Below, in pieces: positions 23,893 to 45,364 of a stretch of DNA of 64,000 nt (its first letter is position 1; every line of letters begins with the position of its first letter). Below the pieces are notes generated by a model. It did not search any database, was not told the origin of the DNA, and was given only the letters and a program-made list of their open reading frames with translations. The stretch comes from Candidatus Bathyarchaeia archaeon (GTDB lineage Archaea > Thermoproteota > Bathyarchaeia > 40CM-2-53-6), in the NCBI GenBank assembly GCA_049513715.1, contig JBEKVV010000001.1, positions 128,001-192,000 on the forward strand, given 5' to 3'. A program made the position numbers and the translations under genes.

Positions 23893-23959
23893 CTGCAATT
23901 AACAGGTCAGGCTTTGTAGGGAAAGCCTAATTTTCAGCTTCGGCATGCGATGAAGGTGA

Positions 23960-24060
23960 AGGTACCGGGGGAGCTGGGGTGACCCGGCTGAGAGGACGGC
24001 TAAGGTTGCCGTCGACCCCTGAGAACCTGATCCGGGTAATGCCGGCGTAGGGAGTGTCCA
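23960..24060 (+). ncRNA. TPP riboswitch aptamer
   Basis: GGGGGAGC...GCTGAGA...GACCC...AACCTGATCCGGGTAATGCCGGCGTAGGGAG matches the THI-box consensus; lies upstream of thiT. Confidence 0.95.
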
Positions 24061-24163
24061 AAATGGTAACACGCAAAGGAATCTGTTCCGGGTACGACTC
24101 TGAAAGAGTACAATCCACCGTCCCTGGTAACCTTCTGCAAACCAATGGAGGTGAAATTGGACG

Positions 24164-31271: not shown

Positions 31272-31388
31272 GGGCCGGTAGTTCAGCCTGGTATGCCAGA
31301 TCCTTACTGGGCCAAAGAATGTCCGGTTTGCAAGTTCTTACACCAAGAGTCCGGAAGGTCGCGGGTCCAAATCCCGCCCGGTCCACCA
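31272..31388 (+). tRNA. tRNA-Ala(TGC) with two BHB introns (21/22, 37/38)
   Basis: GGGCCGG/CCGGTCC acceptor with G3:U70; introns 31295-31316 and 31333-31349; mature anticodon loop TTTGCAT; CCA encoded. Confidence 0.9.
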
Positions 31389-34586: not shown

Positions 34587-34700
34587 AGCCCGGTGGTGTA
34601 GTGGACAGTTCAAACCCGCAGAAGCATAGAGGGCTTTGGACCCTCCGACGGGAGTTCGAATGGCATTGAAGAATGCCCGAAGGTCTCCCCCGGGCTACCA
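34587..34700 (+). tRNA. tRNA-Gln(TTG) with two BHB introns (D-loop 20a/20b, 59/60)
   Basis: AGCCCGG/CCGGGCT acceptor; GAGGG CTTTGGA CCCTC; introns 34607-34621 and 34661-34683; CCA encoded. Confidence 0.92.
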
Positions 34701-40875: not shown

Positions 40876-41046
40876 GGGGCGGTGGTCCAGACCGCGAGTC
40901 AACCCGCGTGGGGACAACTTGGTCTAAGATAGCGCGAGACGCCTTAAAACCGGTCTCGGGGCCAGTTGCCTGAAACGGCGAGCACACCGGTGATCGAGGG
41001 TTCAAAATGATCGCAAACGATCATGACAATCCCTCCCGCCCCACCA
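40876..41046 (+). tRNA. tRNA-Pro(CGG) with four BHB introns (15/16, 25/26, 37/38, 59/60)
   Basis: Removing 40891-40917, 40931-40948, 40961-40984 and 41007-41029 gives a 79-nt cloverleaf: GGGGCGG TG GTCC AGCTTGGTCTA AGAT A CCGGT CTCGGGC ACCGG TGATC GAGGG TTCAAAT CCCTC CCGCCCC A CCA. Confidence 0.9.
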
Positions 41047-44728: not shown

Positions 44729-44880
44729 TGGTAGCGGGGGGTGGATGTTCGGGCGTTCTTGTGGCCTTTCGAACCACCGTTTGAGGAGCCTTCGCGGCTC
44801 AATCTCAGGGTTTCTCGCCAGGATATGAGCCCTCCGCACTGAAGGGTTCTGCGGGTTAAACCTGGCTACCCCACCCCGCT
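44729..44880 (-). tRNA. Initiator tRNA-Met(CAT) with four BHB introns (29/30, 37/38, 47/48, 59/60)
   Basis: Removing 44832-44848, 44812-44823, 44780-44801 and 44746-44767 gives AGCGGGG TG GGGT AGCCAGGTTTA ACCC G CAGGG CTCATAA CCCTG AGATC GGTGG TTCGAAT CCACC CCCCGCT A CCA; A1:U72 and three G-C anticodon-stem pairs. Confidence 0.92.
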
Positions 44881-45364
44881 ACGTTTTGGAACCCGCAGAG
44901 ATTGTTGCCGAGCTACAGGCTTGTTGCCACGCTAGATAAGTTTGTTTCGTAAGCGCACGAGAAAGGAATCGGCAGTTCATCCAAACTGTAAGCTGAACCG
45001 CGACCGAGCCTTGGACCGTTTGTCAATTTTCTCAAAGGCCATCCAGTGGGAGTGTACCACGCGCTTCGCTTCGCGGGACAAAGAGTTCGGCTGCTATGAT
45101 TCTTCGCCTCATGGAACGTTGAGTGAAGACTTTCCTGATTTCCCAAGAATTCTTTCCGTTATCGTTTGTGGAGGCCTCTGCAAACTACCGCAGTTGGAGA
45201 ATTTTCCAGCCGGTCTCTGCCGCGGTCGCTCTGCGGAATCTTTTACACTCTCTTGACAACTTTCCTGGTGTAGATGTATGCCTTTGCTGTAAATAAGTTA
45301 ATACTTGCGCAATGGGTACGGGAAGCCTTATTCATCTTGTTTCATGCGTTTCCCCAGATCAGAA

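Follow-up and report, generated by a model that had tools for sequence, protein, structure and literature searches.

The window analysed here, a stretch of 64,000 nucleotides from a Candidatus Bathyarchaeia archaeon, carries on its minus strand (positions 44880-44729) a 152-nt tRNA precursor with a typical archaeal initiator 5′ end and a 3′ ACCA. When four segments are cut out by coordinates and the remaining exons are joined, ARAGORN recognizes a 79-nt tRNA-Met(cat) with an encoded CCA and a complete cloverleaf, in which all four stems are full and the anticodon, variable, and T loops measure 7, 5, and 7 nt. The exons measure 32, 8, 10, 12, and 17 nt, the last including the CCA (precursor nt 1-32, 50-57, 70-79, 102-113, and 136-152), and the introns 17, 12, 22, and 22 nt (precursor nt 33-49, 58-69, 80-101, and 114-135), which places the four intron sites at tRNA positions 29/30, 37/38, 47/48, and 59/60. 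The features of the locus are as follows:

44930..44947, minus strand: promoter-like A/T-rich element (AAACAAACTTATCTAGCG), 50-67 nt upstream of position 1
44849..44880, minus strand: exon 1, tRNA positions 1-29; acceptor 5′ strand, D arm, and first three anticodon-stem bases
44832..44848, minus strand: intron 1, 17 nt, at 29/30; relaxed BHB
44824..44831, minus strand: exon 2, 8 nt, positions 30-37; G30, G31, and the anticodon loop with CAT
44812..44823, minus strand: intron 2, 12 nt, at the canonical 37/38 site; relaxed motif
44802..44811, minus strand: exon 3, 10 nt, positions 38-47; anticodon-stem 3′ strand and four variable-loop bases
44780..44801, minus strand: intron 3, 22 nt, at 47/48 in the variable loop; strict hBHBh′ motif
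44768..44779, minus strand: exon 4, 12 nt, positions 48-59; 5′ strand of the T stem and the greater part of the T loop
44746..44767, minus strand: intron 4, 22 nt, at 59/60 in the T loop; strict hBHBh′ motif
44729..44745, minus strand: exon 5, 17 nt, positions 60-76; T-stem and acceptor 3′ strands, discriminator A, and encoded CCA

Archaeal initiator tRNA-Met is set apart by its CAU anticodon, an A1:U72 pair, and three G:C pairs at 29-31:39-41, and the spliced cloverleaf has all of these (CAU, A1:T72 in the DNA, and three G:C pairs at 29-31:39-41). The A1:U72 pair alone does not mark an initiator here, since the tRNA-Gln(UUG) gene in the same window also starts with A and has a T before its ACCA. 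A preliminary description, made from the sequence of the window, had proposed five exons and four introns with internal exons of only 8, 10, and 12 nt; the cloverleaf of the joined exons and the alleles of relatives described below both bear this out. It had also stated that the GGG determinant at 29-31 is created only by splicing, and this is indeed so: exon 1 ends in G29 and exon 2 opens with G30-G31. A heuristic multi-intron solver, run blind to those boundaries, returned the same four introns as its minimal solution. Run on the unspliced window, ARAGORN called no tRNA; at the locus itself there was no match to the Rfam tRNA model, either at its gathering score or at E values up to 10. The sole weak Rfam match near the locus, SOX2OT_exon4 (21.8 bits against a cut-off of 40), was put down to chance. 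The pattern of junctions and motifs goes far beyond chance, and the locus is a real initiator tRNA gene. Because its exons are colinear within 152 nt and occur nowhere else in the genome, it does not have the layout that defines a split or a permuted tRNA gene. Upstream, a near-identical copy of the element AAACAAACTTATCTAGCG aligns in about ten relatives (L005, L010, L013, L014, L015, L018, and L039 among them), embedded in flanking sequence that is different; we infer a putative promoter of the BRE/TATA type.

In the published geometry of the BHB motif, a 4-bp central helix is combined with two 3-nt bulges, in each of which the cut follows the second base, and with an inner helix belonging to the intron and an outer helix belonging to the exon. 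The 47/48 motif follows this geometry closely, with the central helix TGAG/CTCA, the bulges ATT and AAC, a 5-bp inner hairpin (GAGCC-GCGAA-GGCTC), and a 2-bp outer helix; this is the anatomy that the preliminary description had called textbook. The 59/60 motif is likewise strict, having the central helix TTCG/CGAA, the bulges AAA and CAT, a 3-bp inner helix, and the 5-bp T stem as its outer helix. The other two motifs are relaxed. At 29/30 the central helix CCGC/GCGG is flanked by the bulges AGA and AGG, and the inner and outer helices are 2 bp and just 1 bp; at 37/38 three of the four central pairs form (CTCA/CGAG), the 3′ bulge is AAA, the anticodon stem (4-5 bp) serves as the outer helix, and the inner helix is absent or 1 bp long. 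Excision at the bulges restores a canonical cloverleaf, as it does for archaeal BHB introns. Self-splicing introns of group I or group II were also considered and rejected; the introns are merely 12-22 nt long, and Rfam gives no match to an intron family.

We then set the gene beside its counterparts in related genomes. Searching the DNA of 40 relatives plus the window's own genome, 41 in total, located the gene in 31 (once in the own genome), and a scan for the exact 32-nt exon 1, with one genome per species, yielded 41 further stretches; the record titles of these are nearly all “Bathyarchaeota archaeon” or “Bathyarchaeia archaeon,” and the bins come from soil, peat, and sediment. All 61 related loci could be parsed (61/61), and they comprise 42 distinct precursor sequences. 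Exon 1 is the same in all 61 loci, for those of the exact scan by selection. The strings of exons 2 and 3 are matched exactly in 42/42 distinct sequences and exons 4 and 5 fit near-exact patterns, and the introns vary in both sequence and length. The central helices are kept through this variation. Every carrier of the 47/48 intron (33/33) has four of four central pairs, an inner helix of at least 2 bp, and a 2-bp outer helix; a perfect central helix, found in 33/33 real introns, appears in 2.1% of shuffled introns and in 0/33 once the 3′ partner has been shifted by 1-3 nt. The inner helix of this intron shows two to six pair types per position, which are compensatory changes: positions 1, 2, and 4 hold standard pairs throughout, position 3 has two non-standard cells, and more occur further out. 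At 59/60 the central helix is complete in 39/40 carriers and at 29/30 in 21/21, the inner helix reaching at least 2 bp in 10/21 of the latter. The 37/38 carriers have four central pairs in 9/28, three in 18/28, and fewer in 1/28. Across the positions, shuffled introns give a perfect central helix in 1-5% of trials, and sliding the 3′ partner by 1-3 nt leaves 0 perfect central helices at this gene's four positions. Judged by these sequence features, the four segments are EndA-type BHB introns, two of them strict (47/48 and 59/60) and two relaxed (29/30 and 37/38).

The relatives differ in which introns they carry. Among the 42 distinct sequences, the combinations are:

All four introns: 14/42
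All but 47/48: 2/42 (L014 and L015, of the same genus)
All but 37/38: 5/42
All but 29/30: 3/42
47/48 and 59/60 alone: 9/42
37/38 and 47/48 alone: 2/42
37/38 and 59/60 together with a fifth position, 71/72: 7/42

There are thus seven combinations over five intron positions, and an intron-free initiator in 0/42. The 29/30 intron is absent, with straight read-through, in 21/42 and the 37/38 intron in 14/42; the 47/48 intron is precisely absent in the two congeners L014 and L015 and in seven other Bathyarchaeia sequences, all with a plain 5-nt variable loop; and the 59/60 intron is absent in L020 and L050. Since the relatives include alleles without single introns, each junction is seen uninterrupted in nature, at the predicted base.

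Two features of the introns themselves may be recorded here. The 71/72 intron (L031, L038, L041, L045, L047, L048, and L058) is 30 nt long, lies in the acceptor-stem 3′ strand, and has a perfect central helix and a 4-8-bp inner helix; its hosts also have the 37/38 and 59/60 introns and are without 47/48. Intron 2, of 12 nt, is almost invariant in the genus, with CCTGGC present in 15/16 of the distinct sequences that carry both 29/30 and 37/38. This CCTGGC (within window 44812-44823) is fully complementary to GCCAGG of the D loop (44861-44866, minus strand), and the resulting 6-bp helix is part of the predicted lowest-energy fold, where it competes with the 37/38 motif.

Class II tRNAs have variable arms of a length comparable to that of the 47/48 hairpin. 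This, together with the fact that standard finders miss the gene, could be taken to mean that some segment is not an intron at all, the 47/48 hairpin being kept as a long variable arm, or that the locus is a decaying pseudogene. We find such a reading scarcely credible. The plain 5-nt variable loop of L014, L015, and the seven other Bathyarchaeia lies at the exact junction, and a variable arm has no need of the 4-bp helix and two 3-nt bulges that 33/33 carriers keep. A decaying gene would be expected to show the opposite of what the 42 sequences show, namely constant exons and introns that diverge and co-vary; and no other initiator was found in the assembly to take its place.

On this last point, when the organism's own assembly was searched for patterns of an initiator-type acceptor end and of an anticodon arm without interruption, this locus alone matched, and short-word BLAST with the spliced sequence and with each of its halves returned from that assembly just this locus's exons and generic T-loop words. 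The two other CAT tRNAs found in the genome start with G. The locus is the sole initiator tRNA-Met(CAU) gene found, and “only copy” holds for this assembly, a metagenome bin of 2.79 Mb that is 99.4% complete with an estimated contamination of 8.79%; the earlier question of whether the genome has a single initiator is thereby answered for the 2.79 Mb at hand. Contigs from four DNA runs contained no intron-free DNA form of this sequence, and one 45-kb contig spans the locus without differences, although its run may be the window's own source. Of additional note, contigs in 3/4 metagenome runs break inside the tRNA gene at exon boundaries (window 44798-44881), and the loose contig ends hold the initiator of another organism from the same samples, which has the first 30 nt in common and then runs straight into the anticodon arm. 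Conserved exons common to co-occurring species probably fragment assemblies at tRNA genes.

The initiator is far from alone in being interrupted. The Rfam tRNA model finds just 18 tRNAs in the genome, 15 of them longer than 80 nt. Our solver, which uses acceptor-stem and CCA anchors, BHB-filtered jumps, and cloverleaf checks, is heuristic and needs an intact acceptor stem and CCA. It solved 34 genes, 33 of them with at least one intron and with roughly 80 introns between them; these totals are rough, as several solutions are doubtful, being class I tRNAs with long variable arms or having hundreds of alternatives. Four introns each were assigned to Pro(CGG), Gln(CUG), Cys(GCA), and Leu(CAG), and five to Trp(CCA). 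A “Ser(AGA)” solution with four introns was judged doubtful and left out of the multi-intron count. Among the genes solved in this genome, variable-loop introns at 45/46 occur in five, and one at 47/48 occurs in the initiator only. The neighbours within the window, with the tRNA-Trp gene for comparison, are:

Window 23957-24071, plus strand: TPP riboswitch match, 68.5 bits against a cut-off of 54.3 (Rfam)
Window 31272-31388, plus strand: tRNA-Ala(UGC), two introns, in the D loop and at 37/38 (solver)
Window 34587-34700, plus strand: tRNA-Gln(UUG), two introns, in the D loop and at 59/60 (solver)
Window 40876-41046, plus strand: tRNA-Pro(CGG), four introns, in the D loop and at 25/26, 37/38, and 59/60 (solver)
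G000:C1:372218-372443, minus strand: tRNA-Trp(CCA), L090, apparently five introns, at 10/11, 28/29, 37/38, 45/46, and 59/60 (solver)

The tRNA-Pro(CGG) gene, 3.7 kb from the initiator, has conserved exons and varying intron interiors in 19 relatives, and L088, from another genus, is without its 37/38 and 59/60 introns. In tRNA-Trp(CCA), the first intron is absent in L113. The 37/38 intron of the latter gene, 59 nt long, shows an unusual degree of conservation throughout the order. In Haloferax, a box C/D guide RNA resides in the tRNA-Trp intron; at the tRNA-Trp locus here, no guide-RNA family was matched in Rfam.

The genome also has genes for the enzymes that would remove such introns. There are two EndA paralogues, at G000:C1:841621-842127 and G000:C4:134780-135220, each with an N-terminal and a catalytic-fold (C-terminal) domain. 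The 186-aa paralogue passes the cut-off of the endA model (86.6 bits against 59.6), and its best solved relatives are 3p1z_B, 3ajv_B, 2cv8_A, and 2zyz_B (E 2.5e-41 to 8.8e-28), which are labelled just “tRNA-splicing endonuclease” and which we take to be catalytic subunits of crenarchaeal heterotetramers. The 192-aa paralogue falls below the cut-off, has weak matches to “subunit beta” models, and seems to be without a histidine found in the 186-aa protein. An RNA ligase, RtcB, is present at 578 bits. From these matches, the EndA pair fits the two-subunit, crenarchaeal alpha-beta type, with one catalytic-like and one beta-like member. The alpha-beta heterotetramer and the epsilon type are named as the two types of EndA that can cut non-canonical introns (PMC5829648). 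The host would therefore have genes both for an EndA of the broad-specificity type and for an RNA ligase.

How might the four introns be removed? The 47/48 motif takes up nt 40-45 and 49-50, and, as the preliminary description had pointed out, these bases are also needed by the anticodon and T stems that flank the neighbouring motifs: nt 40-45 are the anticodon-stem 3′ strand, and so part of the 37/38 outer helix, and nt 49-50 are the start of the T stem, which is the 59/60 outer helix. Because of this sharing, four full motifs cannot all coexist. We carried out partition-function folding of the bare, unmodified RNA at 37 °C for all 15 combinations of retained introns. In the full precursor, the modelled pair probabilities are 0.87 for 47/48 and 0.88 for 59/60, and in the lowest-energy fold of the whole precursor the 59/60 motif is complete and the core of the 47/48 motif is also formed. 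With the two anticodon-arm introns removed, the modelled probability for 47/48 is 0.10 and the motif costs +1.8 to +1.9 kcal/mol. The model puts the cost of the 29/30 motif at +4.7 to +6.6 kcal/mol and that of the 37/38 motif at +3.2 to +5.1 kcal/mol in every context. The folding model suggests a preference for removing the 47/48 and 59/60 introns first, with no obligatory order. Of the ordered, refolding-dependent splicing proposed earlier, the shared bases are thus real, and the model predicts a preference in place of a strict order; the 47/48 and 59/60 motifs coexist in the modelled full precursor.

We propose that the transcript would be a precursor of about 150 nt plus a leader, from which four BHB introns must go. 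EndA would cut in the 3-nt bulges, and RtcB would join the exons. The strict 47/48 and 59/60 motifs, predicted to be preformed in the lowest-energy fold, would probably be cut first; the relaxed 29/30 and 37/38 motifs would require enzyme-assisted folding and would probably be cut later. As the 47/48 motif and the finished anticodon stem are in competition, the intron at this site should be easier to remove early. Cleavage at 29/30 and 37/38 leans on an assumed broad specificity of the enzyme, because these motifs are relaxed and costly to form in the model.

If the order were obligatory, it could act as a regulatory gate, by which the supply of initiator, and hence translation initiation, depends on the activity of EndA. 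The overlap of the 47/48 motif with the anticodon and T stems is in keeping with this idea, as are the modelled fall of its probability from 0.87 to 0.10 upon removal of both anticodon-arm introns, the single-copy and essential nature of the gene, and an intron 2 that is almost invariant in the genus and whose CCTGGC can pair with the D-loop GCCAGG. However, at +1.9 kcal/mol the energetic penalty is small, and both the 47/48 motif and the 59/60 motif are present in the lowest-energy fold. In the solver's output, four or five introns are also assigned to five further tRNA genes of this genome (two of them checked against relatives), and related organisms manage with two or three of the initiator's introns in various combinations. 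We found nothing pointing to regulation, so that the control point for translation initiation suggested in the preliminary description gains no ground here, and we regard such a gate as improbable.

Taking the evidence together, we consider it highly probable that the locus is a single initiator gene with four protein-spliced BHB introns, the strict ones leaving early, in a lineage whose tRNA genes are fragmented throughout; as part of the same explanation, the four introns would belong to that lineage-wide fragmentation, with individual gain and loss, rather than forming a device specific to the initiator.

Reviews and the tRNAscan-SE 2.0 paper give three introns per tRNA gene as the archaeal maximum (PMC4033280, PMC8450103, PMC3218864), and this initiator lies one intron above that “up to three.” The Thermoproteales (Pyrobaculum, Thermofilum, Caldivirga) also have several introns per gene (PMC4033280, PMC4090602, PMC8450103, and PMC3218864), but the maximum in these sources is three, against four in the initiator described here, and their hosts are hyperthermophilic crenarchaea, whereas ours is an uncultured member of the Bathyarchaeia from peat or wetland metagenomes. 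A list of intron positions in PMC4090602 does not include 47/48, but that list ends in “etc.” Wetland-soil Asgard archaea are described in PMC11291895 as having introns in 92-95% of their tRNA genes, and a 2026 preprint reports up to five introns in one gene with repeated gain and loss (10.64898/2026.10.13.758758). Like the present host, these Asgard archaea come from wetland soil and have introns in nearly all tRNA genes, many of them non-canonical and missed by standard software; they belong, however, to a different phylum, and Bathyarchaeia are mentioned 0 times in PMC11291895 and in preprint 10.64898/2026.10.13.758758. Our literature search for Bathyarchaeia or initiator tRNA together with tRNA introns, in a limited collection, found no title or abstract on tRNA introns in this class.

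Disrupted initiators are known as well. Nanoarchaeum equitans has a split iMet and Thermofilum pendens a permuted one, the halves of the latter joining at 59/60 and a further intron lying at 37/38; in both, as here, a single-copy essential initiator depends on BHB processing (PMC3218864). The gene described in this study differs from these two in being colinear, neither split nor permuted, and in having two further introns, at 29/30 and 47/48. Nor is ordered removal of BHB introns a new idea, having already been published (PMC3728597). In pre-tRNAs with several introns, neighbouring BHB motifs may form stepwise (PMC8450103), and in Cyanidioschyzon merolae, by RT-PCR, a preferred order of BHB removal follows motif stability, with the anticodon-arm intron last (PMC3728597). 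Our folding model predicts a pattern like that of C. merolae, with the difference that the order was measured there and is modelled here; moreover, C. merolae is a eukaryotic red alga, whose nuclear tRNA genes have at most three introns (PMC3728597).

A more far-reaching interpretation would make Bathyarchaeia a third independent hot spot of tRNA fragmentation, beside the Thermoproteales and some Asgard lineages, where tRNA genes would carry roughly two introns or more each, and as many as five. It would add an old, order-wide 47/48 intron, a built-in order in which the variable-loop and T-loop introns leave first and the anticodon-arm introns last, the 47/48 motif competing with the finished anticodon stem, and a supply of initiator sensitive to the endonuclease. 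As a whole, we judge this combination unlikely.

The gene we describe involves no new mechanism; it adds another example to a known kind, in a lineage where nearly all tRNA genes are fragmented. Its notable points are how many introns it has, a micro-exon of 8 nt, an intron at 47/48 that is old and widespread, and the seven intron combinations that occur in nature. Since the standard finders miss most of the tRNA genes, annotation of Bathyarchaeia bins will report a missing initiator and an incomplete tRNA set. Five intron positions in seven combinations, within one essential single-copy gene, provide a natural series for studying the gain and the precise loss of introns, as well as how far a mesophilic two-subunit endonuclease can go in recognizing BHB motifs.
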